A stretch of 64,000 nucleotides of DNA. Source: an uncultured Candidatus Peribacteria bacterium. GTDB taxonomy: Bacteria > Patescibacteriota > Gracilibacteria > RBG-16-42-10. Positions 10,133 to 58,793 of the stretch are shown one piece after another. A program made the position numbers and the translations under genes. Where the stretch lies: contig CAZERA010000001.1 of the NCBI GenBank assembly GCA_964514565.1, positions 62,001 to 126,000 on the forward strand, read 5' to 3'. The notes under the pieces were generated by a model. It saw only the letters and a program-made list of their open reading frames with translations, was not told where the DNA came from and ran no database searches. How positions within the stretch are numbered: position 1 is the first letter of the stretch; the number at the start of each line of letters is the position of its first letter.

Positions 10133-10747
10133 ATGAAATCTTTAAGCTACTTTGTTTTGATTAGTGTTGTGCTACTCAATAGTTTTTTTGCAGCCCCAAC
10201 GTTAGCTGCTTCCGGTGAGAGCATTCACTTGAGCGTGAAAGAAGAGACTGCTACCAGCTTGAGCTTGATTCTCCAAAGTAACACAATTAATAAACCCTTA
10301 ATCGGTATTAGTACCTTGCTGCATTTACCTGAAGGAATCAGCTACCAATCATATGATCCAGGCCAATTTTTCGAACAAGCAAACAACCAAGTGACCTACC
10401 TCATCGCTCCCAAGAAAAATGCCCCGCAGACATTAGTGATCGGCATTGCTAGCTTAGGTAAAGCAGTTCAAAACAGTCAGGGCACAATAGTTACTCTGCA
10501 CTTCCGAAAACAAGCCGGGGCCTCTTCCATCAAAAACCTAGCATTAGCAGACTCAATCGCCAGCGGCAGTGACTCTCAAAAGAGAGTGGATTATAAAGAT
10601 ATTGTTTGGACTGTAGATCGATCCTTGGCAACGACGGGAAGTGAGTTACTACTGGTGATACTGATTAGTTTTTTCATTAGCTTGTCTGTGATTGTGGCTA
10701 AGAAGCTATTTCAAAAGAACATAAATTGCCTTGGACCAACGAGGTAA
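10133..10747 (+). CDS. Secreted cohesin-like protein with LATTG-TM-basic C-terminal anchor
   Basis: Signal peptide; PGQFF...LVIGIASLG...GTIVTLHF; ends LATTGSELLLVILISFFISLSVIVAKKLFQK. Confidence 0.6.
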   Translation: MKSLSYFVLISVVLLNSFFAAPTLAASGESIHLSVKEETATSLSLILQSNTINKPLIGISTLLHLPEGISYQSYDPGQFFEQANNQVTYLIAPKKNAPQTLVIGIASLGKAVQNSQGTIVTLHFRKQAGASSIKNLALADSIASGSDSQKRVDYKDIVWTVDRSLATTGSELLLVILISFFISLSVIVAKKLFQKNINCLGPTR

Positions 10748-10865
10748 GAAGTAAAAGGGAAGAGTGAAGAAGTATATAAGTCAGGAAATAATCAGAGTTC
10801 CCTCCGCAATTGCGGACAGCTAGCCCATACACTTTTTACTTCTTACGTATTACCTTTTACCTCCC
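10741..10865. repeat. Heptamer-armed inverted-repeat element with palindrome TCCGCAATTGCGGA, copy 1
   Basis: Purine arm 10741-10777, palindrome 10803-10816, pyrimidine arm 10827-10865. Confidence 0.9.
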
Positions 10866-10902
10866 AAGATGGTATAATCACTTGAATACTCAAAAAACAA
10901 AC

Positions 10903-12495
10903 ATGCCAAATACAAAAACTAAAAAGCCTAAGCACGTACCTAAAGCTAAAGCAAAGCCAAGTCTATTTTGGAATTGGATTGCTGGTCTCAGTCAAAAGAA
11001 AGTGACAAAAGTCGCTCATCCTCGCACGGTGATTGCGAGAAAAGCATTGACAAAAAGAACGATCGGCGCAAAGAGTAATCGCAAGGTAGACATTACTATC
11101 GTCGGACTTGGTTTAGTAATTGCTATCATTTTTGGTAGCAGCAATATCCAAAATTTATTTAAAGCTAGTATTCTTTCACTCAATCAAAAAAGCGCCATTG
11201 TGACATCAGCACGCGCTCGATTAGGGATCGGTTACCAATTGGGTGGCCAAGGTCCTACTAGTTTTGACTGTTCTGGTTTTACCGGTTCGGTAATGAAAGA
11301 AGCACTCAACATCACCCTCCCCAGAACATCTCGCGATCAATACACCGTAGGACGCAATATTGCTTTTGCTGACCTAGGTGTCGGTGACTTGGTATTTTTC
11401 AAAACATCAGGTGGCGAAGATATCTCGCATGTCGGTATTATCACCGCTATCTCTGGCAATGATGTCAAAATGACTCATGCCAATAGTTATACTGGCAAAG
11501 TACAAGAAGAGGACATCAAGAATAGTACATACTGGCAGAAAACTTACTTTGGCGCCCGTGAGATCACCAATGCAACAAAAGACATTGTTGCTCCAAGTAC
11601 ACCAGATGTTACTAAACCAGTCGATCCAGTCTTACAAACCAAACCAGATGAATACAACAGTTACTTCCCACCATCTGAGCTCAATGATGCTCGTATCAAA
11701 GTAGGTGCAGCCACTATCGAACAAAGTACTGATAGTACCAAAATCATTAGTGATACTGTGATTAGAACGACCCCAAGCGCTACTCCAACAGCAACTGTGT
11801 CAGCTTCACCCACCGCTTCAGCACAACCTACAGCTACTGTAGTAGCGACACCAACAACTACTCCTAGTAGCACACCTGCTGTAACTGCATCGCCAAGCGC
11901 TGCACCGACAGCTACAGTTACTGCATCAGCCTCTCCAACCGCTTCAGCACAACCAACAACTCTAGCAAAAGTAAGTACATTTGCAGATGTGGCAACCACC
12001 AACAAAGCATTCTCAGCAATCGAAAAGTTAGCGGCAGCTGGTGTGATCAGCGGGTATGCTGATGGTACATTTAGACCAAACGCACCAGTCACAAGAGCTG
12101 AATTGCTCAAAATGATTTACAAGGCATTAGATAAACCTTTAGCCACAGTAAAAACATCACCATTTAGTGATGTAAAGACTACTCATGAGCTCTTTAGCTA
12201 CATTATCAACGCCTACAATGGTGGCCTAATAAAAGGCTATAACAATAAAACATTCCGCCCAAATCAATCAGTTACTCGTGCAGAAGGTAGCAAAATGATT
12301 TTGAAAGGCTTCGGTATTACGTCAGATATCAGTCGTACGGGTTTCACAGATCTAGATGCCAAGAGTGATCTCACTCCTTATATCGCTTACTTACTGAGCC
12401 AAGAACTCTTGTCAGCCAACAACAATAAAGCACAACCAAACACAGCCCTTACCAGAGCAGATACTGCTTATGTTATTGCCAACTTACTCGACTAA
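10903..12495 (+). CDS. NlpC/P60 peptidoglycan endopeptidase with Thr/Pro/Ala linker and C-terminal SLH domains
   Basis: FDCSG, LPRTS, GDLVFF, SHVGI, THA; repeated ASPTASAQPT linker; GYADGTFRPNAPVTRAE. Confidence 0.9.
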   Translation: MPNTKTKKPKHVPKAKAKPSLFWNWIAGLSQKKVTKVAHPRTVIARKALTKRTIGAKSNRKVDITIVGLGLVIAIIFGSSNIQNLFKASILSLNQKSAIVTSARARLGIGYQLGGQGPTSFDCSGFTGSVMKEALNITLPRTSRDQYTVGRNIAFADLGVGDLVFFKTSGGEDISHVGIITAISGNDVKMTHANSYTGKVQEEDIKNSTYWQKTYFGAREITNATKDIVAPSTPDVTKPVDPVLQTKPDEYNSYFPPSELNDARIKVGAATIEQSTDSTKIISDTVIRTTPSATPTATVSASPTASAQPTATVVATPTTTPSSTPAVTASPSAAPTATVTASASPTASAQPTTLAKVSTFADVATTNKAFSAIEKLAAAGVISGYADGTFRPNAPVTRAELLKMIYKALDKPLATVKTSPFSDVKTTHELFSYIINAYNGGLIKGYNNKTFRPNQSVTRAEGSKMILKGFGITSDISRTGFTDLDAKSDLTPYIAYLLSQELLSANNNKAQPNTALTRADTAYVIANLLD

Positions 12496-13685
12496 GCTTG
12501 AATGGACACACCAATTGCTTGGAGTGCATCCATGAATTGATCAGGCAGCCAGAAAGTTGAACCAATCAGAACAATTAAAAGGAGCAAAGCATAGAGACCA
12601 ACGAGTGCTTTGTTCTTTTTAATTAGATCAACCGGTGTAGCCTGAAGCCAAAGCATCACTAAACGTTTGGTACCAAGGATAGTAAAGAGAATAAAGCCCA
12701 AAGCTAGTAAGCCTAATACTAAATAATTGGTAGCAAAGACAGCAATTATTTGTGAAAACAATAAAAAGACTGTTAAAAACAGTACAGTTGGTGGCATACA
12801 CCAAATCAGCAAAATACTAGCTAGTAGCAAACCGTGTGCCAGTGAGAAGTGGCTGGGAAATGGTTTCACATGTCGCTCAGAGTCAGGTGTTTTTCTAAAA
12901 CGCGCCACCGCCCCACCAATACTACTTAAGATTCGCCAGAAGCCTAAAGTGACCATGGTGCCATTTTCATATTCAAGTAATTCTTCCTCTCCGTCTTGAA
13001 AAAAATACTGGACTAAAGTCACCAACATCAAAGCCACCAAAAAGAACGTAGTGTGAAGCAAGACAGCTAAGCCAGATGATCCACCCGGAGCCCAAAGTAA
13101 AAGTAAGGCCAGCCCCAAGTGAAAACAAAAGAACCAAAGCGACAACCAAAAACGATGGTAATAAAAAATCACCATACCAATCAGAGCAATCACTAACAGT
13201 GCAGTACCAATAATATTAGCTGTAGCTAAGGTAAATACATGCAGATGCATAGCCATTGCCATCACGGTATAAAACCAACTGATCATAGCAATCCCTAGGT
13301 TGATTCGGGCCTTTTTTTGATTAGCAAACCAAATCACCAATACAACGAGAGAAGCTAAAGCCATAGCTGCTTGTTGCCAAAAAGCAGGCATCAGTAAAAC
13401 TGCAAAGGTAAAGAAACTAAAAAGGGTCAAATACACCTGTCCCATCAGTCGTTCAGCTGAAGTTTTTTGGGTACTGATCAAGAGCACTACTACAAAGGTA
13501 AATAGACAAATTAATTGCAGACTCTGTGCCCAAACCAAAAAGATACCAACTGGCAACCACCAGAGTAATCCTGCCTGGCAAACTAATAGTAATAAAACAA
13601 CAGGAAGCAGAGACCAATTTCTCCATCGACCAACAAGAGCAACAACAATAGACAGTACTGGCAGCAGAAGTAAGTAAAGTGACAT
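12492..13685 (-). CDS. Polytopic membrane protein, degenerate HyfF/antiporter-like subunit
   Basis: Many TM helices; CMPPTVLFLTVFLLF resembles GLPPFxxFxSEF; gene order after HyfB-like and HyfC-like genes. Confidence 0.45.
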   Translation of the reverse strand: MSLYLLLLPVLSIVVALVGRWRNWSLLPVVLLLLVCQAGLLWWLPVGIFLVWAQSLQLICLFTFVVVLLISTQKTSAERLMGQVYLTLFSFFTFAVLLMPAFWQQAAMALASLVVLVIWFANQKKARINLGIAMISWFYTVMAMAMHLHVFTLATANIIGTALLVIALIGMVIFYYHRFWLSLWFFCFHLGLALLLLWAPGGSSGLAVLLHTTFFLVALMLVTLVQYFFQDGEEELLEYENGTMVTLGFWRILSSIGGAVARFRKTPDSERHVKPFPSHFSLAHGLLLASILLIWCMPPTVLFLTVFLLFSQIIAVFATNYLVLGLLALGFILFTILGTKRLVMLWLQATPVDLIKKNKALVGLYALLLLIVLIGSTFWLPDQFMDALQAIGVSIQA

Positions 13686-13690
13686 AGTGA

Positions 13691-14476
13691 TTAAGCTAAA
13701 ACGAAATAGGAGAAGAAACCGGCTGACAATAACACCAGCAATACCTGAATAACTGTGGCAATGCGATTAGGAACTTTTTGATAGAACAGCACAGCCAAGC
13801 TTAGAACAACAATAGCAATTACAAACTTTACTACTAAAAACCCTGCAGCCAACAAAAGAGCGCTAGCACTGAAACTGATTGCTAAACTTGCTGGAAACAA
13901 AATAGCACTAGTCCAAAGCACCACTAGCCAGAGACTGGTCCAAAGGGACCACTCATTTAATTTGAATTGACCAGCAACAGAGCCAACCACTCTTCCCCAG
14001 AAGATGAGGATCAACACCAATAGAATAATAGCTGCTACTTGAGCAAGCACACTTAAATGAATTCCATTACTTAGCATCACGGTGCTATGAAAAGATTCGG
14101 TAGCAAAGGCGGCACCCAGAAGCAGAAATAAAAACCCGACATTCCCCAGTAGTACGCTTACTCTTTGAGCGTGATCAGCCGAAAGTAATTGAGCAATAAG
14201 CAAACTAAACCACATAAATATACTATCCCCCATCCAATCAAATGGTGCCCGCAAACTTATCACTGGAATAAGCAGCACCAGCATCATCAGTATTGCCCAA
14301 GCAATCAATGACACCTGATCTGATCCCCGTAACGACACCAGCAAATCTCGATATGGTTGCAGGATTTTCTTGGGATCACGCAAACCAATAGCTGAAGCAA
14401 TACCAGCCAATAAAGGGGCCAGTAACCAAGTCAGGAGCACTTGAGCAAATAGAATAAGCACAATAGTGACAGACAT
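13691..14476 (-). CDS. HyfC/NuoH-like membrane subunit, degenerate
   Basis: LLAPLLAGI...ILQPYRDLLVSLR is the family N-terminal signature. Confidence 0.65.
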   Translation of the reverse strand: MSVTIVLILFAQVLLTWLLAPLLAGIASAIGLRDPKKILQPYRDLLVSLRGSDQVSLIAWAILMMLVLLIPVISLRAPFDWMGDSIFMWFSLLIAQLLSADHAQRVSVLLGNVGFLFLLLGAAFATESFHSTVMLSNGIHLSVLAQVAAIILLVLILIFWGRVVGSVAGQFKLNEWSLWTSLWLVVLWTSAILFPASLAISFSASALLLAAGFLVVKFVIAIVVLSLAVLFYQKVPNRIATVIQVLLVLLSAGFFSYFVLA

Positions 14477-14482
14477 AAGAGA

Positions 14483-16039
14483 TTAAATAGTGGTATCAAT
14501 AGCACGTTTCTGTTTGCTGCTAGCTAGCAAACTAATTACTAACCAAAATAAAACTACCAACAACAAAGCAAAAGGCAGATGAATAGTATTAGCAAATCCA
14601 AGCATACTGATACTATAAGAAGACCAGGTACCTTCTACCAAGGTCCCACTGAGACCCAAGAAGCTAGCAGTGTATGAGCCAAGCCAATTGATGATGCCAC
14701 CAGCGGCAAACACCGCCACTAAAGCAGCAGCAGACCACAGCAATAGTCCCCAATGTGTTACTTGTTTCCAGCCAAGATTTAGTTGTTCAAATGCTGCTGA
14801 TCGATACCAGCTTGCCACAGTATAAAGCAGGCCAACTAAAATTGACGCAACCAAGATAACCAACATAGTAGTATGCCAAGTAGAATCACTTACCAGTACC
14901 ACTGACTGCCAGAGACCTTGGAAGAAAAGCCACAAGGTAGTAAAAAGTCCAGCCCCCCAAATCACCACTCGTGCTTGATTAATAATCTTGTAAGGTCTAG
15001 CCCAATAGTACAAAGCAATATTGATCACCAGGGTAAGTATTCCCCAAAACACAGCCACAGCCCAAATAGAAACGATAGCGGCGATGTTTCCTTGAATAGC
15101 CCACAAGAACAAACCAGTGAGCACCAAAACCAAAGAAAACGCCAAAGACCACAAGGTAAGCACGGTCTTTTTGATCAAGGCATACATACTAAAGAACACC
15201 AGTAACAATAAACCCAAAGCAGCAATTGCTATATCCAACCATAGCGATACTGCTGGGACAAAGAACAACTCTATTCTCAGCAACAAATAAACAATAAAGG
15301 TCAACATCAAAGCACTATACATACCTGCATAATAGTGACCAACCGCTCGAGCAACTTGTTTACCACAAAAAGCCAATGTTACTAAACTGATCACCAAAGT
15401 ACCCAAAACCAACCAGGTAACTGGGTCAGGTAAGGCACCTACACCTTGTACTAGCGCTCCGAAGTAAAGGTTTTGAGCAGATGAAGCAAGCAACATCCAC
15501 ATCACCGTCAGTAAAACTGTACCTACTTCCAATAGCACTAAATAGGTACCAGCTAATTTTTTTTGTACAGCAGGTGCTACCCGCTTACTAAGCAGAATAT
15601 AAAGAAAGCCACCTAAACCAAAACACTGTGATACAAAGATAAAAAATAATACATTGCTACTTGCAACCACTAAAGTAATCATCAGAAACACAGCGTGAGC
15701 TAAAGCATGACCAAGCCAATGTTCATCAGTGCTTTCGGTAGACCAGAAGCTAAAGAAACCAAGCCCAATGATACCGATCAAAAGCAAAAAGAAAGCAGTA
15801 AATATATCGATATGTATCGCAGTAGTAATAGTACGAATACCCTCAAACAACTGAAAATCCAAGCTAGTACCTAGATTGAACAACTGCCAACTCAAATAAA
15901 TCAGCAAGCCACTTCCAAGCAAACCCCAAAATAAAGAGGCCATGCGAGCTACATTCTTCCAACGACCAAACAAGATACTAAAGACGCTGCCGAGACCGAA
16001 TGAGGCGAGTGCAAGGTACAAACTATAAGATAGGGGCAT
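14483..16039 (-). CDS. HyfB/NuoL-like antiporter-type membrane subunit, degenerate
   Basis: IDIFTAFFLLLIGII, VVASSNVLFFIFVSQ, AGTYLVLLEVGT, SALMLTFIVYLLLR. Alternative GTG start at 16045. Confidence 0.6.
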   Translation of the reverse strand: MPLSYSLYLALASFGLGSVFSILFGRWKNVARMASLFWGLLGSGLLIYLSWQLFNLGTSLDFQLFEGIRTITTAIHIDIFTAFFLLLIGIIGLGFFSFWSTESTDEHWLGHALAHAVFLMITLVVASSNVLFFIFVSQCFGLGGFLYILLSKRVAPAVQKKLAGTYLVLLEVGTVLLTVMWMLLASSAQNLYFGALVQGVGALPDPVTWLVLGTLVISLVTLAFCGKQVARAVGHYYAGMYSALMLTFIVYLLLRIELFFVPAVSLWLDIAIAALGLLLLVFFSMYALIKKTVLTLWSLAFSLVLVLTGLFLWAIQGNIAAIVSIWAVAVFWGILTLVINIALYYWARPYKIINQARVVIWGAGLFTTLWLFFQGLWQSVVLVSDSTWHTTMLVILVASILVGLLYTVASWYRSAAFEQLNLGWKQVTHWGLLLWSAAALVAVFAAGGIINWLGSYTASFLGLSGTLVEGTWSSYSISMLGFANTIHLPFALLLVVLFWLVISLLASSKQKRAIDTTI

Positions 16040-16069
16040 ATTCACTTAGAAATTCGTTTGGATTATAGT

Positions 16070-16582
16070 CTGGGGAGATAAGAAGTAAAAGGGAAGAGGT
16101 AAGAAGTGATTGAGCAAAGTGAGGAAGAATCAGTTTTTGTTAGAGAGAGTTTTTACGATGGCTGCTAATAAACGAATAATTTCTTCTACCTCATCGATCT
16201 CATCTTCAAGTGATTCAAGATAGAAGTCGCTAGCTTGTAGCAACATCAACCAATACTTAGTCTCAGCTGCTTCTTTCAATGCAATCCGATTTTTACTCAA
16301 AAAGTCCTTATGACTAGCAGCAAACCCAGCCTCAGCAATATTAGCCCCAATACTAGTGCCACTACGAACCAACTGTTTAGAAAGCAAGAACTCTCTCTGT
16401 CCCTGTAAGCGCGAAGCAAGCTTAATAATCCGTAAAGAAAAATAAAAACTCTTCTCATAAACAATACTAGAAGCCATAAAAAAGAAGTTAAGATCACCAT
16501 CCAGTATACAAATACAAAAATGAAATCGTTACTTCCCCAAATACATTTTTTACCTCTTCCCCCTTACTTCTTACCTCCCCAG
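16070..16582. repeat. Heptamer inverted repeats enclosing the four-helix-bundle gene
   Basis: 16070-16106 CTGGGGAGATAAGAAGTAAAAGGGAAGAGGTAAGAAG is the near-perfect reverse complement of 16546-16582. Confidence 0.9.
16130..16477 (-). CDS. Four helix bundle protein (23S rRNA intervening-sequence protein / Avd-like family)
   Basis: KQLVRSGTSIGANIAEA...DFLSK..IALKEAAETKYWLMLL. Confidence 0.93.
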   Translation of the reverse strand: MASSIVYEKSFYFSLRIIKLASRLQGQREFLLSKQLVRSGTSIGANIAEAGFAASHKDFLSKNRIALKEAAETKYWLMLLQASDFYLESLEDEIDEVEEIIRLLAAIVKTLSNKN

Positions 16583-16673
16583 CAAGGGGGGGCTTGGTAT
16601 CTCAAGCCAAATTATGCTAGAATATAAGGAAGGTCCAAAAAACCCCCAAAAATAAATACCTAAACATAACAGT

Positions 16674-19600
16674 ATGTCATTCCTCTCTCGTCTCTCTAGT
16701 TTGTTTGCTCTTAAGCAAAAAACAGCCGTGAAGCTGATCGCGCTCATGAGTGTTATTGCCTTTGTCGCTAATTTGACTCCGGAGCTCTATCGAGATGTGC
16801 CTAGTCAAGCAGACGAAGGTAGCGGAGATGTGACAGCTGCGGCACCACCAACACCACCAACAAACAACTATATTCTGGTAGATACTTTAGGAAATGGGAA
16901 CCTCGCAACAGCTGCAACTTCATGTATCGTTCGTTTAGCAAATGCTGCCTATCCTACAACAACAGTAACAACTGGTTGTCATTTAGACCAGGCGATTAAA
17001 GTAGTTAATGACACTCCTGGCACCGATACATTTACAATTGCTTTTCACCCACTATCATTCAACCCTGCACCTTTTCATCTTGATCTAACAAGTCTATTAC
17101 CTAACATTGATAGAGCATCAGGAGGTCCAGTCATCTTGGATGGAGCTATGGGGGGATCGAATGTAATGACACTAAATGATAATACAGCTGGCAATAACCA
17201 CTTAAGTCACTTTTTCCGCATATCAAAGAGTGATACCCCTCAAACAGTAACAATTCAAAATTTCGCTTTCTCAAGTCTAGTCATGCCTGGCGCAGCAGCA
17301 ATTACATCAGATATTCTTTCGACAACAACTCATGTTGACCCAGCCGATATCAATAGCCTTAATATCAACCACAACTATTTTGGTACCCGTGATGGATTGA
17401 CTTTAGTAGGATCACAGGCCATTTGGCAAGCTGTGAAGGTGTATGTACCTGCTGGAATTGTGTCTAACATATCAATTACAAATAACGATATATTCAACAG
17501 TGTGGCTGGTATAGAAGTGGGTAGTAGTAGTGACTTTAACGATAAAAGCTGTATAGGTCAGGCATCAGGGTTGTATAATATTAGTGACAATATTATTGGG
17601 CTTAATAAAAACAAAGCGATTACTGATCGAAACTATTCTGGCCCCAATATTCAGGGAGCATGGAGTTTGTTCGGTGTGAAAGTATGTAATCTCAATAGAG
17701 CAGAAATTAAGAGAAATACTATTGCTAACTCTTTAGGATTACTTCCACTTCCTGATGTAGGTATTGATATTCAACAATCGGTACATTTAGTACAGGATAA
17801 TGATATCGGTGTTGTAAAAAACTCAGACGGTACATATGCAACAAATTTTGATTGGGGAATCGTCGGTTATGGAATTAGGGTAATAAAAAACGACGAAAAA
17901 TCATTTATTGTAAATAATAATATTGCTAATATATTTACTATACTAGCACCATCTGCTGTTAATCTTTATTGTACAAACATATTCCAGTCTATTTATGATC
18001 CTACTCAGGCAGATACTAACGCCTGCGGCGGCACAGGGATAAATCTTTACTGGGTAAAAAATGAATCAATTTATAATAATACTATTGGTAACGAAATCAC
18101 CCCAAACCTTGGTTATGGTATTGAGATTCTTGGTGGGATGGGACAGAACAGCAGCAGTAGCACTGTCGGTGGAGGAGCTAATATTGAGTACCAACCATCA
18201 TCATCAAATGAAATATTTAAGAACACTCTTAAATATAATCTAGCTGACGGTATACAAGTACGATCAATTTCTAATTTGGATCCAGACAACCTAGCTCCCA
18301 CCAATCAAACATGTACGACTTCTCAGACTTCATTAGATCCCTTAAATCCTACAACAGAAGTAACAACTAACAACTGCGAAAATACTTTAATTCAAAATTC
18401 ATTGGTTCGTAACGGACCATACAATGGCGCAAACTTCTGTATCGAGTCACAGTGTACTGGTAGCCCAGAAGGTGGTATCGGTATCGATTTAAAACGTCAT
18501 AATGATGCAACTGAACAAAAGTATCTTACCATTACAGCTCCTTATACTGGATCAGGTACTACTAATGACAGTGACATAACTGAAAACGATACTAACGATA
18601 CTGACCTAGGTGGTAATGATGTGCTTAATACACCAGTACTTTACGGTAGTGGCGCAGACGAAAGCAGTATGAGCACAGCTAGAACAATTAGAGGTAACTT
18701 ATCACAAAGTCAAAATGGTCGTTATTGGGTAGAAGCATTTGCAGTAAACTGTCCTGCTGAATTCAACAGCACTACTCCTACGATAGCATGGGCAAACTCT
18801 GCGACAAATTGTGATACCGACAGTCCAAGTCTAGATGATCAAACAGATCATAAAACTTTTGGTCAAGGCTTCAAATTCCTTTGTGGAGCTTACGTCAATA
18901 AGACAACAAGCCCAGCAAACTGGTCTTGTGATCCTAGTGACTTCGGCAATACATTCGCAGGTGGGTTAGTTACTTCAACAGTTTCTTCATTGACCGCGCC
19001 TATCTCTAGCACAGGAATTTCATCAACTGCTAGTGATCCACCTCCAAACACTCAACCTGATACATCAGTAGTTCTGGTGACACCAACAGCTCCATCTGTA
19101 TTAATAGGTTTCCCTGGACTTACTCCTTTGAATGCTCCAAGATTTTCATGCGAAGCCATCACTACATACATATCACGTACAAGCAGTACTAGTGGTTGTG
19201 TAGGACAATTAGACCGATTCTCTCCTACTACTACAGACGTAATTCTTGGTACTATGTTAGAACAACTCACCAATACCTCTGAGTTTAGTCGGAACGCTTT
19301 CGTGCCAGCTGCCGACTTGGGACTAACAAAAACTGTACGTACTTGTACTGGACCATTACCTGCAGATTGTGCAGGCGAAACATTTTCGTCTTCAGTAAGT
19401 ACTGAGCCAGGCGAATATGTTGAGTTCAGAATTGAAGGACTAAACAACTCTGAAGCCCCTGCTTCAAGCGTTAATATCACAGATCAATTACCTTCTGAGT
19501 TTTCTTGGACAAGTGGGACATGTAATTACTTTACTAACCTGTCAACCGCACCAACAGATCGTCCATCTACCGGGTCACTCAACTGTACTTCTGCAAACGA

Positions 19601-22406: not shown

Positions 22407-22421
22407 TTTAACGCTTCGCGT

Positions 22422-22481
22422 AGATAAGAAGTAAAAGGGAAGAGGTAAGAGTTAATCACTTATACCATTCCCTTTTCTTCA
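22422..22481. repeat. Short, degenerate heptamer-arm hairpin
   Basis: AGATAAGAAGTAAAAGGGAAGAGGTAAGAG followed by the partly complementary CTTATACCATTCCCTTTTCTTC. Confidence 0.7.
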
Positions 22482-31409: not shown

Positions 31410-31440
31410 CTCTGACCTCTGCTCTCTGACCTCTGACCTA
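31410..31440. repeat. Tandem heptamer tract, CTCTGAC family, copy 2
   Basis: CTCTGAC CTCTGCT CTCTGAC CTCTGAC CTA, 2 bp before the nrdR ATG. Confidence 0.75.
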
Positions 31441-31442
31441 TC

Positions 31443-31886
31443 ATGGAGTGCCCTCGCTGTCATACACTAGAAACTGCCGTCATCGATTCGCGATTAGCAG
31501 AACACAACAAAGCGATTCGTCGTCGCCGACAATGTGATAAATGTGAATTTCGATTCTCAACGATTGAACGTGTCCGCTACGAAGGCTTTGTAGTAATCAA
31601 GAAAGATGGTACTAGGGAGCCCTATAACCGCCAAAAATTAGAAGAAGGCATCTGGAAAGCATGTATCAAACGTCCAGTCACCCAAATGCAGGTAGATGAT
31701 CTTTTGATCAAACTAGAAGAAAAGTGGTCGCTAGAAAAAGAAGTTCCATCCACCACCTTAGGCAAAGACGTTCTCAACGCCCTCAAAGAGCTAGATCAAG
31801 TAGCCTACATTAGATTTGCCTCAGTCTACCGCTCTTTCTCAGATCTAGCCTCTTTCCAGAAACTGCTAGAGGATTTATCAAGTTAA
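31443..31886 (+). CDS. nrdR: Transcriptional repressor NrdR
   Basis: CPRC..VIDSR..IRRRRQC..C..RFSTIE zinc ribbon, ATP cone, VAYIRFASVYRSF. Confidence 0.98.
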   Translation: MECPRCHTLETAVIDSRLAEHNKAIRRRRQCDKCEFRFSTIERVRYEGFVVIKKDGTREPYNRQKLEEGIWKACIKRPVTQMQVDDLLIKLEEKWSLEKEVPSTTLGKDVLNALKELDQVAYIRFASVYRSFSDLASFQKLLEDLSS

Positions 31887-31888: not shown

Positions 31889-31941
31889 AAAAGGTAAGAA
31901 GTGAATAAGCTTCTTACCTTTTACTTCTTCTTTTTTACCTC
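31889..31941. terminator. Heptamer-derived hairpin between convergent genes, likely bidirectional terminator
   Basis: AAAAGGTAAGAAG-tgaataag-CTTCTTACCTTTT, a perfect 13-bp stem, then further pyrimidine heptamers. Confidence 0.7.
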
Positions 31942-49595: not shown

Positions 49596-49606
49596 GTTTA
49601 CTGTCT

Positions 49607-50748: not shown

Positions 50749-50778
50749 TTGACATGGTTTAAATCACTATGTTAACTT
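50749..50778 (+). promoter_or_regulatory. Strong sigma70-type promoter upstream of the SLH cluster
   Basis: TTGACA at 50749-50754 and extended -10 TGtTAACTT at 50770-50778. Confidence 0.6.
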
Positions 50779-50783
50779 CCCCT

Positions 50784-51101: not shown

Positions 51102-54100
51102 ATGACAAATCTCCGTAAAATAGCGGTAGCAATTTCTGCTGCAGCTATGTTCATGGGAGTATTGCCTCAAGCATTAGCTGGTAGCATCTTCTCAGATGTT
51201 GCTGATACTAATGAATTTGCGGTTTATATTCATGATCTTCAAGCACAAGGTATTGTGAGTGGTGTCGGAACTACAGGTATGTATATGCCTCAACGTAATG
51301 TTACTCGTGGTGAAATGATGAAAATGGTCATCAACGCTATGAAAAAGTCTGGAGAAGGTAAGAGTGCTCTTGCTGATGTTCTCAGTACAGCTCCTCTTGC
51401 TGGTGCTCCTCACTTCGAAGATGTGCCAGCTGGTAGCTCATTCTACGATCAAGTAGAAATGGCTTACGCTCTTGGTATCGTCAATGGTCGCCGTGCTCCT
51501 GCTGAAGGAGTACAAGGTTCATTCGGTGTCAACGAACCTGTATTGCGCCAAGAAGGTATGAAGATGGTTGTTGGTGCTTACCGCAAGGTAGCTGCTGACA
51601 CATTCATGCAAGACTTAACTGGTGGTCCATCATTTGATGATGTGTCTGCAAGTTCAGAATTCTATGATTACATCCAAACTGCTTACAATCTCGCTATTGT
51701 AAATGGATACGGTAACAGCAAGTTCGGTCCTATGGATCCTATGCGCCGTGACCAAATGGCGAAGGTTATCTCAAACACTATGAAAGTATTCACTACTGGC
51801 AAACCATTGTCTGTAGGCGTACCTGCTCGTGTCCAAGTAGACAACTCTGATCCACAAATAAAGAACGATGGTACATCTACTGCTACTATCACTTGTACTA
51901 TTGTTGACCGTAATGGTAACCGTGTTGGTGATTGGACAACTCCAGTCAGCTTCACAACTGACGCTGGTACATTGTCTATTGTAGGTGGTAGCGAAGCTGC
52001 TGCAGCTACAAAGACTGTTAGTACTAACGATGGTCGTGGTCAAATCACTTTGATCTCTTCTACTACTGCTGGTACAGCGACTGTTACATGTCGTACTGGT
52101 ACTATGGAAGGTACTACCAAGGTAGAATTCACAGCTGATGCTCCTGGAGTCCGAAACGGCTTCGGTAGTGCTGCTATCGCTGGTGTTGGTGAAATGCATG
52201 TTCGTGCTACTGACAACCATATCGTTGCTAGTCGCCAGACTGCTCCTAGTGGTTCAATTGCTGGTCTTAGTTCAGCCTCAATCACTCCAGTGAGTGGTTT
52301 TGCAACTATTGAATCATTTGTGTACGACGATGCTGGTGATCCATCATGTGGTGACACATTGGTTTACTCTATTCGTTCAGGTAATGGTAGCCTAGAAGCT
52401 GGTCCACTACCACCTACAAGTGCTGCTACTACAGCAGTACGTTCATTGACTCTTCCAGCATCTAGCTGTCTCAATGGTCGTTATGTTGCTTACTTGAACA
52501 TTTTGAACACTCAAAATTCAGGTAACGTAGTAGTACAAGTGCTCGATCGTTCTACAAGCCCATCTCTTATGACTACAGTCAATGTTCAAATTGACTTGGT
52601 AAAACTGGATGCAAAAGTATACGATAACAGCATCTTGACTCGTAACTCAGCTCAAATTGCTGCTACAACAGGTACTGAGCAAAACATTGCTCCAGTAGTC
52701 ATCAAGACTTTGGATGAGAACAACCGTCCTTTCCAAACTGTTAAGGGCTCTGCAGTTGACCAAGTTGAATGTCGTTTAGTGAGTGGTGCTACATCTAGCG
52801 CTCTCTTGGACGGTGTTATCAACAGTGCAACAGGTGTTCGTACTCGTGCAACTACAGTTCAAGCTGACTATATCGAAGGTTCAGCTGGTCTCTACACAGT
52901 AAACGTTATTGCTGGTAGTGCTAGTGGTACTTTGACAGTTGAGTGTCGCGACGTTGATGCAATTGGACAACCTTCAGTTCGCTTCAATGTTAGTGTTCGT
53001 GCTCCTCAAGTTGAAATCTTTGTTTCTGGTGCTCGTGCTCGTGCTGGTGACCTTACAACAGTAATCGGTCGTATCCGTGATGGAAGCAAACCTGTTACTG
53101 GTGAAGAACTACGTCTCCAAATCGATGGTGGCGATGGTGTAGTCGATACTAATGATGGTGGCAGTTATACCTATGCTGATGCAGCACAGAATAGTGCTAC
53201 TATGGATATAATCTGTTACCTCAATGGTACTGTTCCTACTTCATCATCACAGATTACAGGTAATCTCTTGATGGATGGTGCAGCTTTCTTAGGTGCTGTG
53301 AGTGTTGTTCCTTTTGGAACAGTTGGTGGATGTTCTTCAATCTCTGGTGCTGTAGATTCTGGCTGGTATACAGCTAAGGTTTACATGCCATTAGATACAA
53401 CAGAACGTGATCAGACAATCAATCTCCGCGCTACTGATCTTTCTCGTGCTGAACAACCTCAAGGTCAAATTACTGTCGTGTCTACACGTGGTCTTCCAAG
53501 TGAGGCTCGTCAATTGACTGTTATGCCTATGTCACAAGAAGTAGGTATCAACCAAGACATCCCTACTATCATGTTTGTTCGTGATAGCCGTGGTTTCGGT
53601 CTCTCTTGTACTTCTTCTGGTGCTGTTAACCCAGCTAATACCAATGGTGAAACTGGTCCTGATCAATGTAGTGATGCTATGAATGGAGTTGTTCCAACTA
53701 CTACTACTCCTTCAATCGGAATCAACCGCACTCAAGGTGTTAATGGTCTAGTTGGATACTTATCTGTAAATCCTACAACTAGCGAAAACGTATACGTTTA
53801 CAGCCGCGCTGTTCCTCCTGCTGCTGTTAACGATGGTGTTGCCAATGATACAACACAGCGTTATATCGTATCTAACCTTGGTGGTGGAGCATACTTCATG
53901 GTTGCTCGTGCTAAGGATCGTGCTGACCGTGCTGAATGGAGAGTTGAGCTACATGACTCAAGTGGAGTCGAGCTCCAAGCTCCTTTGGTCCAAGTCAACA
54001 TCGTTCCAAACCGTGTAACTACTGAATTCTCATTGGGTTCAACTATTCCAGATTGGAATAACACTTTGATCGCATTCGTTCGTGATCAAAACAATGATCC

Positions 54101-54737
54101 TGTTACTACTTTGAACAATCAACGTGCTGGTGGTACATTCCCAACCAACAACTTCACTTCTTTTGCGGTTACTCGCTCTGGTTCTGATGTCGCTGATATT
54201 CAACCAAACACCAATGCTGGCTTAATCCCTGCTGGTGCAAGTACAGATCTTCTCCATGATGGTACAAACCCAATCGGAAGTGGTCTTTATCTCTTCAATG
54301 TAGATACAATCAGTTCTGCATCTGTAGGAACTGTTTCAATCAAGGTTAGCTTGAATCAAGCTACAAACCCTGAAAGTACAGCTAGCTACCGTGTTCAAGA
54401 TCCAAGTTTGTCATTTGACGCTTGGCCAAATCGTTTGGGTTCATCAAATGTAGTTCCTTTGACTATCATTGTTCGTGATGATCAAGGTACTCCTTTGACA
54501 CTTGGCACAACAACTCCTTTAGCACAAGTTGAAGTAGTTCGTGGCAGTGGTAACCTCGAGGGTGTCAATGCCGTTTCACCTGGCAGTGGCCTCCGCGTAG
54601 ATGTTGCTACCTCACTCGACGGTGTATTCGTTGCTAGCTATAAGGCATCTTCAGTTACTGAGGGTGTTGACTTAGTTGCTCGTCTCAACGCTGTTAGCTC
54701 TCGTGTTGAACAACGTCTTTCTCTCAACGTAAACTAG
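51102..54737 (+). CDS. Probable major S-layer protein: three SLH domains and invasin-like Ig domains
   Basis: Signal peptide; VTRGEMMK, VLRQEGMK, MRRDQMAK SLH motifs; NDGTSTATITCTIVD; strong CGT/GGT/GCT/ACT codon bias. Confidence 0.8.
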   Translation: MTNLRKIAVAISAAAMFMGVLPQALAGSIFSDVADTNEFAVYIHDLQAQGIVSGVGTTGMYMPQRNVTRGEMMKMVINAMKKSGEGKSALADVLSTAPLAGAPHFEDVPAGSSFYDQVEMAYALGIVNGRRAPAEGVQGSFGVNEPVLRQEGMKMVVGAYRKVAADTFMQDLTGGPSFDDVSASSEFYDYIQTAYNLAIVNGYGNSKFGPMDPMRRDQMAKVISNTMKVFTTGKPLSVGVPARVQVDNSDPQIKNDGTSTATITCTIVDRNGNRVGDWTTPVSFTTDAGTLSIVGGSEAAAATKTVSTNDGRGQITLISSTTAGTATVTCRTGTMEGTTKVEFTADAPGVRNGFGSAAIAGVGEMHVRATDNHIVASRQTAPSGSIAGLSSASITPVSGFATIESFVYDDAGDPSCGDTLVYSIRSGNGSLEAGPLPPTSAATTAVRSLTLPASSCLNGRYVAYLNILNTQNSGNVVVQVLDRSTSPSLMTTVNVQIDLVKLDAKVYDNSILTRNSAQIAATTGTEQNIAPVVIKTLDENNRPFQTVKGSAVDQVECRLVSGATSSALLDGVINSATGVRTRATTVQADYIEGSAGLYTVNVIAGSASGTLTVECRDVDAIGQPSVRFNVSVRAPQVEIFVSGARARAGDLTTVIGRIRDGSKPVTGEELRLQIDGGDGVVDTNDGGSYTYADAAQNSATMDIICYLNGTVPTSSSQITGNLLMDGAAFLGAVSVVPFGTVGGCSSISGAVDSGWYTAKVYMPLDTTERDQTINLRATDLSRAEQPQGQITVVSTRGLPSEARQLTVMPMSQEVGINQDIPTIMFVRDSRGFGLSCTSSGAVNPANTNGETGPDQCSDAMNGVVPTTTTPSIGINRTQGVNGLVGYLSVNPTTSENVYVYSRAVPPAAVNDGVANDTTQRYIVSNLGGGAYFMVARAKDRADRAEWRVELHDSSGVELQAPLVQVNIVPNRVTTEFSLGSTIPDWNNTLIAFVRDQNNDPVTTLNNQRAGGTFPTNNFTSFAVTRSGSDVADIQPNTNAGLIPAGASTDLLHDGTNPIGSGLYLFNVDTISSASVGTVSIKVSLNQATNPESTASYRVQDPSLSFDAWPNRLGSSNVVPLTIIVRDDQGTPLTLGTTTPLAQVEVVRGSGNLEGVNAVSPGSGLRVDVATSLDGVFVASYKASSVTEGVDLVARLNAVSSRVEQRLSLNVN

Positions 54738-54763
54738 TTCTTACTAGTAGACGTTCGCAATAA

Positions 54764-54805
54764 ACAATCAAGCCGCTTCCTAGCAATAGGGGCGGCTTTT
54801 TTGTT
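54764..54805 (+). terminator. Intrinsic terminator, duplicate copy A
   Basis: ACAATCAAGCCGCTTCCTA-gcaa-TAGGGGCGGCTTTTTTGTT. Confidence 0.9.
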
Positions 54806-54828
54806 ACCTGAAATTTACCTTAGCACTT

Positions 54829-54957
54829 GAAGTAAGAAGTAAAGGGGAAGAGTTAAGAAGTTTGTGAGCAGAATATGAGCGCTCAGATGTTTCAATCCGC
54901 AATTGCGGAGACATGGCTCATACATTTCTTACCTCTTCCATCTTACCTTTTACTTCC
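54829..54957. repeat. Heptamer-armed element with palindrome TCCGCAATTGCGGA, copy 2
   Basis: Purine arm 54829-54861, palindrome 54896-54909, pyrimidine arm 54920-54957. Confidence 0.9.
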
Positions 54958-55009
54958 TGCAAGCGCGGTGTACAATCAACTGGTTCCTTTAGTTTTTAAT
55001 ACAAAGTTT

Positions 55010-56200
55010 ATGAAACGACTGAGCTATTTATTTTTGATCCCACTTGTTCTTTTTTCTCAAGTACAATTAACGTTAGCAGCTGCCCAATTCTCAGATCTTG
55101 CAGGAGTTGCTGGTGATCAACTAGACGCAATTACTAGTCTATCTAGTAGTGGAGTTATCAAGGGGTATGGAGATGGTACATTTAGACCGCAAGCACTGAT
55201 TAGTGAAAAAGAGTGGGGATTATTGGTTAGTAGAGCTATTCATGATCAAGATGATACTGGCCTAACTGATCAGCCTATTACTCGATTAGGCGCTTTGTAT
55301 CTATTGAGTGCGATGTGGCACTTGGATTGGCATCAAGAAACACTTGCTGCGAACTTTAGTGATGTCTATAGCAATTCTGATATACAAGTGGTCAACTACT
55401 TTAGTCGCAAGGGGATTATTCATGGTAGATCTACTACTGAGTTTGTTCCACAGGGAATGCTGACTAGAGCTGAGGCAGCTAAAGTTCTTTCGTTGGCGCA
55501 AAGCAATGTACTAACTAATGGTCAAATTAATCAGACAAACAATATTTCTTCATCGGTTCCTTTGACATCCGCTGGGCTACAAGTAACTCAGAATGTTGTG
55601 GAAATTATAGATGTATCTCCCCTAAACCTTGGCCCTGGTCAAACAGGTACTTTATTATTCACTATTAAAAACAATGGTGATCTAGAGACCGGCCTACAGG
55701 AGGGGACTGATTATAGGGTGTCTGTACTAAGCGGTGATGTGCACGTAACTAGTGTTTCTGAATTAGGTAACGGGCTTTATCAAGCAATGTTTCAAGCTTC
55801 TACCAATGCAGCGGCAGGACCAGTTAATATTCAAATTACGGCATTTATGGGAACTACTTTCCATACTGATATAAATCAGTTTTTACAGCAAAGAGCTGAG
55901 GCCCAGGTTTCTTTGGCGCAGTTGGTGCCAAATCGTCTCTATAGTAATCAAAAAGCTCAAATTATCGTTACTCCTCAGGGGATCGGGGGATCTAGTGTTA
56001 CCGGTTTAGATATTAGTGCTGAGGTTACTCATGGTGCGGGTACTATTATTGAGCCAGTAGTTGAGTCTCCTGTCGGTAGTGGTATTTATATTGGCACCTA
56101 TCAAGCGACTGGAAGCGGTGGACAAGATGTAGAAATTACAGTGCGAGTAAACAATCTCTCTTCTCGCCCTCAGACAGTAGTTACTGGGCACATCCTTTAA
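55010..56200 (+). CDS. SLH-domain protein with two Ig-like domains
   Basis: Signal peptide from ATG 55010; KGYGDGTFRP, LTRAEAAK; ELGNGLYQA and GSGIYIGTY. Confidence 0.8.
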   Translation: MKRLSYLFLIPLVLFSQVQLTLAAAQFSDLAGVAGDQLDAITSLSSSGVIKGYGDGTFRPQALISEKEWGLLVSRAIHDQDDTGLTDQPITRLGALYLLSAMWHLDWHQETLAANFSDVYSNSDIQVVNYFSRKGIIHGRSTTEFVPQGMLTRAEAAKVLSLAQSNVLTNGQINQTNNISSSVPLTSAGLQVTQNVVEIIDVSPLNLGPGQTGTLLFTIKNNGDLETGLQEGTDYRVSVLSGDVHVTSVSELGNGLYQAMFQASTNAAAGPVNIQITAFMGTTFHTDINQFLQQRAEAQVSLAQLVPNRLYSNQKAQIIVTPQGIGGSSVTGLDISAEVTHGAGTIIEPVVESPVGSGIYIGTYQATGSGGQDVEITVRVNNLSSRPQTVVTGHIL

Positions 56201-56353
56201 AGCGCTTCTAGCAATGCTTAATTACTATTATCTCTTGCTGATGCTGTCGTTCCGAGTTTATAAAATGTTGAGAGTAGTTGTAAAGCGGTTCTTTGGCTTT
56301 TCTTTGCTATCGGTTGGGTGTTTAGCCTACAATCTTTAAGGTAATTAACTCTT

Positions 56354-58546
56354 ATGTTTATGATGAAATTGCGTCTTTATACGCGTTTTATCTCTTTGGC
56401 ACTGGTGGGATCTGTAGTTTTGGCGCCACTGGCCCAAGCTGCTTTCTCGGATGTGTCTGGAGGTGAATTCGCACAATATATCAATGACCTTAGTACTCGT
56501 GGAGTACTTGGTGGTTCAGGTGGAAATTTTTATCCTACTCTCAACCTCACTCGTGGTGAGTTGGCTAAAGTATTAGTAAGTGCTGCAAGTTTGCCAGTCG
56601 TGACTACTAGTACCAGAAGTTTTAGTGATGTGGCTGCTAGCAATTCATTCTATGGTCCTATTATGACCTTGGCTGCACGCGGTACGGTCAATGGCTATAG
56701 CGATGGAACTTTCCGTCCAAATGCTAATGTTACTCGCGGTGAATTTTCTAAAATGGTTGTAGGATCTTTTGGCTTCCAAACCAATACTCAAGGTGGTCCA
56801 CATTTTAGTATGGATGTACCTACTAGCAACACTTTCTACTCTTTCGTAGAGACTTTGTATGCTTTGAATGTTATCAATGGTTATAGTGCTTCAACATTCG
56901 GAGTAAATGATAGTGTTACTCGTGAACAAATGGCCAAGATTGTTAGCCGTGGCATTATGGCAAAAGCAGGAACACTTGAGTCTCGCCCAGGTACAAGCGG
57001 CGCCCTCAAAGAATTCCCATTGTCATTCAATTATGCTTTCCCTCGTTTGCACTTAGTGCCTGATGCTGATGCTAATCAAGTAGAAGTAACAGCACAAAGA
57101 TTTCCTCATTTAGAGGGTGGTTATATGTATGAGTTGTGGGCAAAAGATGCTACTACTTCATATAGCCTTGCTCGTTTCAATGTTGCAGGTGGTGTGTTGG
57201 TTAGTGATCGTGAACTTCCAGTTACTACCACTATTGCTTTGCCAGTGCCATATCGCACAGTAAGTAGTTTTGCAGTGACTGTTGAGCCAAAGAACGATGG
57301 TGATATCAATGCATCTCACACTATAGCTGTTCGTGGCCTTCCATCTTCAGGTAGTAGTGCTTTTGATTTAGATTTCCCAGTTGGTTATGGTAATACCAAT
57401 GCAACTGCTCGTATCTATGGTACTGGGCATGATGTATTGAGTGTCAGTTTCGATAATCTTCCTAGCTTAAGTAGTATTGGTTGGCAGTACCAAGCATGGT
57501 ATGTCAAAGATGGTAATGCTGTGAGTGCTGGTTTATTCCAAGGAAATGGTGTAGGTACTATGTTCCGCAGTGGTACTTTGCCAGTAGATTTGTTCACTGT
57601 TCAACAAGTGAAAGTCTCAGTTGAACCAATGCCAGATGATGCTACAGCACCTTCTTTGGTAGTTTGGTCAGCAAGTGTTCCTGGTGCTCCCACTCCTACT
57701 AGTACTGTTGTGGGTGCCGTTAGCAGTGATCCAACTCATGATACTGACCTCTACAAAGGTCTGACTACATCAATGACCACTTCTTCACTTCGTGCTCGTA
57801 CTGTGACTAAGACTGATACTGCTCAGAAAGTAATTATTCAGGCATATGCAGCAGCTCCAGTGGTTGCCGAGAATCAAGATCAAGCAATTGTAGTAAAAGT
57901 ATCTGATCTCAATGGTAAGCCAATCAGTGATCTCAATCTTACTTTTAGTCGTGTTGAAGGTCCAAGTGCAAACTTCAATGATCCTCAAGAGATTGGAAAT
58001 AATTCAGGTATATACATTGGTAGTTATCGCAATAGTGAAGATGTCTCAACCACTGATACAGCTATTGTTCGTATTCAATCTGATGGTCAAAATTCAAGCT
58101 CTTCATCAAGTTCAGTAGTTACTGTGCCTGCTGTTGATGTTCAGTTTACAGTTTCTTCATCAACTGTGATTGGTTCAGCACGTACTATGGAAATCGATGT
58201 TCCTCGTCTCGAGACAACATTTGACGAAAATAATACTAATTCAACTCAAAGTGACGTAATTGTATTGGCTACTGTACTTGATAGTAACCGCAAGGCTGTT
58301 GAGAGTGTATTAAGTAGTGATCTCACCCTTCAGTCACAAAGTACAAATGCTACTGGTTATACTGATAACAATATTAAATATTTCACTTTGGATGATCGTT
58401 TCTTCGGTCTAGATCGTGAAACAAGTAATATTACAGTAAGTAGAACATTCAACGTTCAACTTATTCCTGGTACTTCGGATGATTTTGCTCCGATTACCTC
58501 TGATCAGTACACCTTGCGAGCTAAGTTTATCGCAAGAACAAACTAA
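56354..58546 (+). CDS. SLH-domain protein with two anti-sigma-K (RskA) C-terminal-like domains and Ig-like domains
   Basis: Three SLH motifs; YELW..FAVTVEP and YQAW..VKVSVEP. Confidence 0.75.
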   Translation: MFMMKLRLYTRFISLALVGSVVLAPLAQAAFSDVSGGEFAQYINDLSTRGVLGGSGGNFYPTLNLTRGELAKVLVSAASLPVVTTSTRSFSDVAASNSFYGPIMTLAARGTVNGYSDGTFRPNANVTRGEFSKMVVGSFGFQTNTQGGPHFSMDVPTSNTFYSFVETLYALNVINGYSASTFGVNDSVTREQMAKIVSRGIMAKAGTLESRPGTSGALKEFPLSFNYAFPRLHLVPDADANQVEVTAQRFPHLEGGYMYELWAKDATTSYSLARFNVAGGVLVSDRELPVTTTIALPVPYRTVSSFAVTVEPKNDGDINASHTIAVRGLPSSGSSAFDLDFPVGYGNTNATARIYGTGHDVLSVSFDNLPSLSSIGWQYQAWYVKDGNAVSAGLFQGNGVGTMFRSGTLPVDLFTVQQVKVSVEPMPDDATAPSLVVWSASVPGAPTPTSTVVGAVSSDPTHDTDLYKGLTTSMTTSSLRARTVTKTDTAQKVIIQAYAAAPVVAENQDQAIVVKVSDLNGKPISDLNLTFSRVEGPSANFNDPQEIGNNSGIYIGSYRNSEDVSTTDTAIVRIQSDGQNSSSSSSSVVTVPAVDVQFTVSSSTVIGSARTMEIDVPRLETTFDENNTNSTQSDVIVLATVLDSNRKAVESVLSSDLTLQSQSTNATGYTDNNIKYFTLDDRFFGLDRETSNITVSRTFNVQLIPGTSDDFAPITSDQYTLRAKFIARTN

Positions 58547-58562
58547 GTTTATCTAAGTAGTT

Positions 58563-58606
58563 ACAATCAAGCCGCTTCTCTAGAAACAGAGGGCGGCTTT
58601 TTTGTT
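58563..58606 (+). terminator. Intrinsic terminator, duplicate copy B
   Basis: ACAATCAAGCCGCTTCTCT-agaaac-AGAGGGCGGCTTTTTTGTT. Confidence 0.9.
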
Positions 58607-58663
58607 GGCTGACTTTTAGCTCACGCGAGAGATGTCTCAACAACAATCTTTTGTTGGGCTGAT

Positions 58664-58793
58664 GAGGTAAGAAGTAAAAGGGAAAAGTGAAGAAGTATAT
58701 AAACAAAGTAAGCAAGTTCAATAGCTACAATCCGCAATTGCGGACCCCAGGCCCATACATTTCTTACCTTTTACTTCTTACTTTTTACCTCCC
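58664..58793. repeat. Heptamer-armed element with palindrome TCCGCAATTGCGGA, copy 3
   Basis: Purine arm 58664-58700, palindrome 58731-58744, pyrimidine arm 58755-58793. Confidence 0.9.

Follow-up and report, generated by a model that had tools for sequence, protein, structure and literature searches.

The window analyzed here is a 64,000-nucleotide stretch (C1:62001-126000) from the genome of an uncultured Candidatus Peribacteria bacterium (G000), a 1.12-Mb assembly of 7 contigs, C1, C2, C3 and C6 among them, which is 92.7% complete and has a G+C content of about 41%. Three hairpin elements in this window lack an open reading frame (ORF) and belong to a heptad-armed repeat family, designated family A. 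They are probably miniature relatives of the intervening sequence (IVS) type of element that carries a PF05635 gene, the gene of the 23S rRNA IVS protein or S23p, and they live in intergenic DNA. This reading draws on the anatomy of the family, its spread through the genome, compensatory change in its core, the identity of its arms with those of a PF05635 element, the bracketing of PF05635 genes across the class and the turnover of the heptads, each of which has been observed.

Anatomy and spread of family A

The three elements lie where the first-pass annotation had placed them, with the layout that it described: a purine arm of about five heptamers, a variable spacer, a 14-bp palindrome, exactly 10 bp, the motif ATACA and a complementary pyrimidine arm (Table 1). 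The exact palindrome occurs three times in the window, as opposed to an expectation of 0.16, and three copies were reached in 0 of 100 shuffles. The terminal inverted repeats fold into a long stem, the arms align across copies, and the predicted folds of the three elements (-32 to -51 kcal/mol) are well below those of their own shuffles on both strands (z -3.1 to -7.3). The partial copies mentioned in the same annotation are likewise real, corresponding to three solo arms.

Genome-wide, a heptad-array detector identified 88 family A arms, with none in a shuffled genome serving as control, and a profile built from four element copies matched 60 loci (nhmmer). Among the 79 stronger arms, 45 are paired, forming about 22 hairpin elements, and 34 are solo. 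Arms consist of about five degenerate heptads in a set order, reading GARGTAA on one strand and TTACYTC on the other. What the copies have in common is the ordered series of different heptads, a length of about five units, the inner flanks and the core hairpin. All of them are intergenic and none is found in helix 25 or 45 of the 23S rRNA; where the 23S gene has been assembled (model positions 15-1931), it is matched with only small gaps between pieces. The common orientation claimed for the elements holds in the window. In the whole genome, visual reading has the core facing a co-oriented downstream gene in 10 cases and facing away from it in 7.

The palindrome had been considered invariant, which is true of the three window copies; the genome contains only four exact occurrences, and other members carry variant stems and loops. 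Among 23 full copies the stem reads TCCGC/GCGGA, TCCAC/GTGGA, TCCAT/ATGGA or TCGAC/GTCGA, with a varied loop sequence. In the 5-bp core stem, 90.4% of the cells are paired as opposed to 77.1% in shuffles, slid registers giving 29-56%. The covariation check that had been proposed yielded 13 double-sided changes against 4.1 in shuffles, a number reached in 0 of 500 shuffles, and one-sided changes are rare. Compensatory change of this kind fits a hairpin and not a fixed operator, and a fixed protein-binding palindrome, as formerly suggested, is thus unlikely. The core stem lies 10-14 nt before the core-proximal arm, an arrangement also detected in several half elements devoid of the other arm. 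An RNAalifold consensus of the 23 copies retained only 3 pairs, those of the core stem, because heptad slippage blurs the register of the arms. The same core module is borne by hairpins with TAGTGAA arms (family D); since one core occurs with different arms, core and arms are modular.

PF05635 genes and their heptad-armed flanks

A lead in the first-pass annotation, a four-helix-bundle protein, turned out to be the key to the family, as family A arms bracket its gene (the gene-bearing relative of Table 1). The protein of 115 aa matches PF05635 (23S_rRNA_IVP) and TIGR02436 (four helix bundle protein), and its closest solved relative is PDB 2rld (E 2e-24), with 5 chains in its one entry. The arms around this ORF follow the order of the short elements, purine and then pyrimidine, and together with 15-20 nt of inner sequence they align with the ORF-less copies. 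The ORFs of the genome, which were called crudely, were ranked by the best inverted repeat between their two 220-nt flanks; among 1008 ORFs, this one ranks third with a score of 31.

The genome contains six PF05635 genes, with ranks of 3, 8, 26, 26, 41 and 549 by the same score. Visual inspection showed a purine-rich, heptad-like array upstream of every one of them, built from a different heptad in each case; an inverted pair encloses three of the genes and stands ahead of the remaining three. These arrays recur at 41, 10, 3, 2, 1 and 1 places in the genome, the 41 places being those of the arm described above. Both here and in relatives, the purine-rich array stands 30-110 nt before the PF05635 ORF. 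Two of the genes (C3:107840-108388 and C1:18740-19307) directly follow tRNA genes; in both, the space from the tRNA 3' end to the ORF holds an inverted heptad pair. RNase III is encoded on C1.

The association extends to other genomes. In seven other genomes of the same family, which gave 33 PF05635 matches, 26 loci were examined: a period-7 array lies within 330 nt in 14 of them and on both sides, inverted, in 7, with 24 arrays at period 7 as opposed to 0-5 at periods 5, 6, 8, 9 and 10. At the level of the class, the PF05635 family occurs in 51 of 81 genomes, in up to 17 copies. For 30 loci from 30 of these genomes, the flank inverted-repeat score ranges from 12 to 29, against 8 to 16 in controls with flanks displaced by 700 nt, and reaches at least 14 in 28 loci and in one control. 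Once an N-run artefact was removed, strict period-7 arrays were found at 15 of the 30 class loci, each gene having its own heptad. A strict lag-7 detector overlooks degenerate arrays, the family A arms included, and its period-5 control, which has a shorter window, is not comparable. PF05635 matches in three class relatives (G036, G041 and G078) contain 2-5 in-frame TGA codons, suggesting TGA-recoding lineages.

PF05635 has been described as resembling Avd, a protein of diversity-generating retroelements (DGR), in the available text of PMC10053308. No reverse transcriptase was found in the 92.7%-complete assembly, and the six genes are therefore not DGR accessory genes.

Other ORFs were encountered in similar surroundings. 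A 120-aa ORF (C2:88525-89143) between family A arms is without similarity to the PF05635 protein and is matched by neither Pfam nor NCBIfam; it could represent a further cargo gene, or else be spurious. Three ORFs of 87-109 aa, at C1:565604-565933, C1:604570-604848 and C1:479108-479371, encode small GIY-YIG nucleases: the first and the second, bracketed by inverted arrays, are 2nd and about 11th of the 1008 ORFs by flank inverted repeat, and the third is only faced by a solo family A arm. The top flank score of the genome, 34, belongs to a DUF1801 ORF (150 aa, C1:580530-581137) bracketed by TAGTGAA-type arms.

Table 1. Heptad arrays and heptad-armed elements of the window, with positions counted from its first nucleotide
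Feature	Coordinates	Strand	Details
ORF-less hairpin element, family A	10734..10865	+	left purine arm 10734-10775; core stem-loop 10803-10816; right pyrimidine arm 10829-10863
ORF-less hairpin element	54829..54957	+	arms 54829-54863 / 54922-54956; core 54896-54909
ORF-less hairpin element	58657..58793	+	arms 58657-58698 / 58757-58791; core 58731-58744
Gene-bearing relative	16075..16577	-	family A purine arm 16075-16109; PF05635/TIGR02436 ORF 16130-16477 (minus); pyrimidine arm 16543-16577
Solo family A arm	8343..8384	-	pyrimidine strand reads toward priA start
Solo family A arm	22421..22455	-	between two plus-strand surface-protein ORFs; pyrimidine strand reads toward end of upstream gene
Solo family A arm	31907..31941	+	between convergent nrdR and 1684-aa ORF
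Family C array (AGGTCAG/CTCTGAC type, four units)	31410..31439	+	ends 3 nt before nrdR ATG at 31443

Turnover, mobility and competing readings

Outside this genome, family A was sought in 30 relatives by pattern and in 150 genomes of the class by covariance model. It is essentially specific to this genome, with 58 pattern matches as opposed to 0-3 in each relative, and covariance-model scores of 97-143 bits here against 26-47 bits in 18 of the 150 other genomes; 11 of the matches elsewhere were inspected and are heptad-armed inverted repeats of other sequence. Two congeners have abundant families of their own (at least 34 and at least 41 matches), and in one congener an array of its own kind occupies the site behind the terminator of a paralogue encoding an S-layer homology (SLH) domain. 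Of 6 species compared at the efp promoter, 5 have heptad arrays before a conserved -10-like box, and the heptad differs from lineage to lineage. The arm at ssb is common to three species and absent in two. Arrays have thus been kept at their sites while the family changed, which indicates turnover and not simple recent insertion.

Wider searches added little. The degenerate arm pattern, run across genome contigs, matched 122 low-complexity heptamer runs from many phyla and is uninformative on relatives. Public sequence runs gave 18 weak matches, four of them aligned, and no contig joins across an element; one public RNA contig ends at 54764, before a terminator-like hairpin, and none of the four aligned covers an element. 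Metagenome scans returned no relatives of the 520-aa ORF, and PriA relatives that are merely 35-45% identical.

If the elements are miniature IVS-type relatives, the short copies would derive from the long gene-bearing one through loss of the ORF, and copies would spread or be replaced via a process at the DNA level. The 35-45-bp stem, once transcribed, may be cut by RNase III in the manner of rRNA IVSs, and the core stem-loop could act as a recognition hairpin in single-stranded DNA or in RNA. The suggestion of a non-autonomous family resembling miniature inverted-repeat transposable elements (MITEs) is consistent with a dispersed inverted-repeat family that has a longer, gene-bearing relative; dispersal and turnover alone would point to mobility.

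Several observations weigh against this account. As already noted in the first-pass annotation, target duplication is not found: in 23 elements, words shared between the own flanks average 4.3 nt, compared with 4.1 +/- 0.95 nt for unrelated flanks. Nor does the 92.7%-complete assembly hold a transposase of the four families searched, namely Y1 (PF01797), TnpB-type (PF07282), rve (PF00665) and DDE_Tnp_1 (PF01609), and the missing reverse transcriptase points the same way with regard to mobility. No empty site or presence/absence polymorphism of the same species was found in public contigs, which are short, of low depth and break at the arms. The ssb arm occurs in three species, so at least some arms are stable and not recent insertions. 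One of the six PF05635 genes, that ranked 549th, has no flanking repeat, and for three large heptad families (B, D and E) the assembly offers no PF05635 partner. Pairing between arms is no stronger within a copy than between copies (-29.9 and -31.9 kcal/mol, respectively; permutation p 0.975); it follows from similarity to the consensus, with no selection for pairing shown beyond it, and solo arms are unable to form a hairpin. Finally, transcription and cleavage of the elements are presumed by analogy with rRNA IVSs.

The position of the arms relative to genes bears on a second reading, in which the arrays are cis sites read by PF05635 pentamers, with one heptad for each subunit and one dialect for each paralogue, and form paralogue-specific regulons of transcription or translation near -10 boxes and start codons instead of selfish DNA. 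The count of about five heptads per arm would suit such a reader, since Xanthomonas S23p is a homopentameric toroid as cited in the available text of PMC4990558 and five chains are present in 2rld. The six PF05635 genes each stand beside their own kind of array, four of which recur in the genome, and the lineage-specific heptads before the efp -10-like box agree with the idea. The solo arms do as well: in 24 of the 34 the pyrimidine strand is directed at a gene start and in one more at a tRNA gene, and a manual count in tandem gene contexts gave 13 sense and 2 antisense.

Two classes of spacing were recognized visually. In the first, about 35-40 nt separate the end of the arm from the ATG, and an extended -10-like box follows 7-16 nt past the arm; the second comprises arms within operons (at mutL, ssb, pth and other genes), where the distance to the ATG is 1-10 nt. 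Some copies have a -35-like hexamer in the last heptad, 16-17 nt from the -10 box, and a promoter consensus scan placed TTTACT-16-TACAAT at 54949-54976, spanning the end of the 54829 element. On the other side, the enrichment of -10 matches within 25 nt is modest: they occur for 18 of 54 arms facing starts, for 6 of 25 that face gene ends, in 79 of 406 upstream regions lacking an arm and at 10% of random positions. A sense-strand bias is missing when all 135 oriented intergenic arrays are counted: arrays pointing to a gene start and to a gene end number 33 and 18 in family A and 46 and 38 in other families, and in tandem contexts the other families give 25 sense and 28 antisense. Families B, D and E are without a PF05635 gene, and it is hard to picture how some 80 sites and their reader could have switched dialect jointly between sister species. 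The regulon reading is regarded as unlikely. A fuller form of it, in which each paralogue has its own array at the ends of its gene and copies of that array are seeded near promoters and start codons, is held to be somewhat more doubtful still.

The orientation counts also led to the rejection of a rule by which leaders would always have the G-poor strand as sense, as there is no sense bias over all arrays. Along C1, no switch in solo-arm orientation was seen by visual reading. Visual reading also showed A-rich leaders without Shine-Dalgarno motifs before start codons throughout the genome (in the window at 10870-10904 and 54975-55011), and extended -10-like boxes about 25-30 nt before the ATG, suggesting short leaders. 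Counts of promoter and terminator consensus matches in the window were not above those of shuffles.

According to a third reading, the arrays are ordinary heptanucleotide simple sequence repeats (SSRs), born in place by replication slippage and comparable to long SSRs (LSSR) and short tandemly repeated repetitive (STRR) sequences, with no dispersal, no function and hairpins that arose by chance. Among long SSRs, heptanucleotide repeats are reported to be the most frequent class in the majority of genomes, with polymerase slippage named as their source (Mrazek 2007 via the available text of PMC4679880). Period 7 is indeed dominant here: Tandem Repeats Finder reported 173 period-7 arrays of at least 3.8 units, 142 of them mostly intergenic in a genome whose intergenic DNA is about 13%, against 28 at period 5 (7 intergenic), 12 at period 8 (1) and 8 at period 10 (2). 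The arm pattern also matches heptamer runs in many phyla. The intergenic arrays fall into at least five sequence families with about 4.3-5 units in each, comprising family A (58-62 arrays), AATTAAC (24), AGGTCAG (at least 14), TAGTGAA (12), AATTTTA-like (12), CTTTCCA and others. Independent slippage does not yield a shared order of different heptads, a length of about five units, common inner flanks and a core hairpin at 10-14 nt, nor the reuse of that core with other arms in family D. Just one perfect 7-nt microsatellite was seen, at C1:478453-478687 (about 11 + 8 units, split by a 100-N assembly gap). Slippage in place is consequently judged improbable.

About equally poor, or slightly poorer, are the prospects of a reading of the elements as structured RNA genes, bidirectional terminators or attenuators. 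Stable folds on both strands, a G+C-rich inner stem followed by T-rich arms and the compensatory changes in the core are what such a reading would lead one to expect. Against it, Rfam at gathering score has no match on the elements, the RNAalifold consensus is limited to its 3 pairs, a T run directly after the stem is absent, and none of the 22 hairpin elements has convergent genes on its two sides. Moreover, two window copies stand directly behind separate terminator-like hairpins. The sole Rfam match in the window is a tRNA gene at 2202-2291, of 90 nt on the match (model 1-71), where a long variable arm or an insertion is possible. The terminator-like hairpins consist of a 7-bp G+C-rich stem, a long loop and a T run, and are conserved behind paralogous large surface-protein genes, at 54770-54805 and 58570-58606 in the window, at C1:2650-2700 and at C6:45190-45240, with orthologues in relatives G001 and G002; they were left uncalled by the consensus scanner because their loops exceed its length limit.

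The genes next to the elements had inspired the first-pass annotation's main idea. In the window, the 10734 element precedes an ORF with NlpC/P60 and SLH domains (ATG read at 10904). The 54829 element lies between a terminator-like hairpin (54770-54805, visual reading) and an SLH ORF (ATG read at 55011), and the 58657 element between a second such hairpin (58570-58606, visual reading) and another SLH ORF (ATG 58866). The elements had accordingly been described as always upstream of SLH genes, which is correct for all three window copies; genome-wide, only 3 of 54 faced genes encode SLH domains (one doubtful 64-aa ORF being counted among the 54). Pfam searches of the faced genes identified truB, tmk, fba, efp, a comM-like gene, adk, miaB, ahpC, a 5'-3' exonuclease gene, rpsF, mutL, atpB and glyA, genes for an ECF sigma factor and malic enzyme, ssb, polX, pth, ftsK, hsp20, an H+-pyrophosphatase gene, a xerC-like integrase gene, ileS, rplU (L21), rpmE (L31) and rmuC. 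Of the copies elsewhere in the genome, the two most closely related to those of the window lie upstream of truB and rmuC, and 2 of the 5 SLH ORFs in the window (51102 and 56354) have no element. A cassette with an invariant palindromic operator coordinating SLH or envelope genes, as suggested by three window copies that share an exact palindrome before SLH ORFs, is next to untenable given this gene-class test, which refutes an envelope regulon with downstream genes of all classes, and the paired variation of the palindrome. Behind large paralogous genes and one and the same terminator-like hairpin stand three copies with identical or nearly identical palindromes (window 54829, C1:2734 and C6:45018), and therefore the whole segment has been duplicated. 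The SLH link comes from duplication of a gene-terminator-element segment and not from regulation.

Known systems and significance

The closest parallel to the miniature IVS-type reading is found in the 23S rRNA IVSs of Leptospira, Coxiella and bacteria of the candidate phyla radiation (CPR), in which a PF05635 ORF occupies the loop of a long stem made by terminal inverted repeats. The present bacterium is itself probably CPR-like, to judge from its genome size, its gene content and the TGA-recoded relatives in the class. The Coxiella IVS is presented, in the available text of PMC4990558, as a selfish element with 28-bp terminal inverted repeats, an S23p ORF and excision by RNase III; three or four tandem heptamers precede the ORF, and family A shares with it purine-rich tandem heptamers in the 5' arm before the ORF. 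Insertions in CPR rRNA genes are reported to encode LAGLIDADG, GIY-YIG or 23S_rRNA_IVP proteins, many of them being short and ORF-less as in family A (available text of PMC11270868). The present elements differ from these IVSs in being intergenic instead of placed in helix 25 or 45 of the 23S rRNA, in numbering about 80 arms of one family per genome, solo arms included, and in having ordered five-heptad arms and an additional conserved 5-bp stem-loop. Excision by RNase III would be carried over here from the IVSs by analogy.

Family A also resembles MITEs of the Correia type in its size of 100-150 bp, its terminal inverted repeats, its many intergenic copies and their location next to promoters. 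Correia elements of Neisseria are MITEs with outward-reading ends. Unlike MITEs, the family is without target-site duplications and without a cognate transposase among the four families searched, and its gene-bearing partner with the same ends encodes PF05635 and not a known transposase. Repetitive extragenic palindromic (REP) sequences and bacterial interspersed mosaic elements (BIMEs) are short intergenic palindromic repeats with REP-associated tyrosine transposases (RAYT), in which the hairpin is likely recognized in single-stranded form. In contrast to these, the genome has no Y1/RAYT gene (PF01797), and the arms are much longer and built from heptads.

A further comparison can be made with the TAACTGA arrays of Beggiatoaceae, Cyanobacteria and Bacteroidetes and with the cyanobacterial STRR sequences. 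According to the available text of PMC4679880, the TAACTGA arrays are intergenic, precede start codons, often by a few nt and without a Shine-Dalgarno motif, have a lineage-specific spread and show no pattern in the function of downstream genes; in all these respects family A is alike. In the arrays of that text, one unit is repeated perfectly, in copy numbers that vary and nearly always in direct orientation, whereas family A has degenerate, ordered units, about five in number, often in inverted pairs around a hairpin and linked to PF05635. The terms S23p and IVS occur 0 times in that paper (PMC4679880). A literature search, with supplements not covered, found no published link of PF05635 genes to dispersed heptad arrays outside rRNA.

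IVS elements and S23p have been known for decades just as odd rRNA insertions of unassigned function, and intergenic heptanucleotide repeats have likewise been without an explanation. This genome and its class unite the two, in that inverted repeats, in many cases heptad arrays, enclose the PF05635 genes, and ORF-less hairpins and solo arms of the same sequence stand beside gene starts. The family further illustrates that such repeats can mimic regulons where paralogous genes are duplicated along with them. With its partner sequences now defined, the function of S23p becomes testable. If pentamers of this protein do read five-heptad arrays, this would amount to a fast-evolving, paralogue-specific control of transcription, RNA processing or translation in small CPR genomes, and would provide a function both for the IVS protein and for the unexplained heptanucleotide repeats of bacteria, such as the STRR and TAACTGA arrays.

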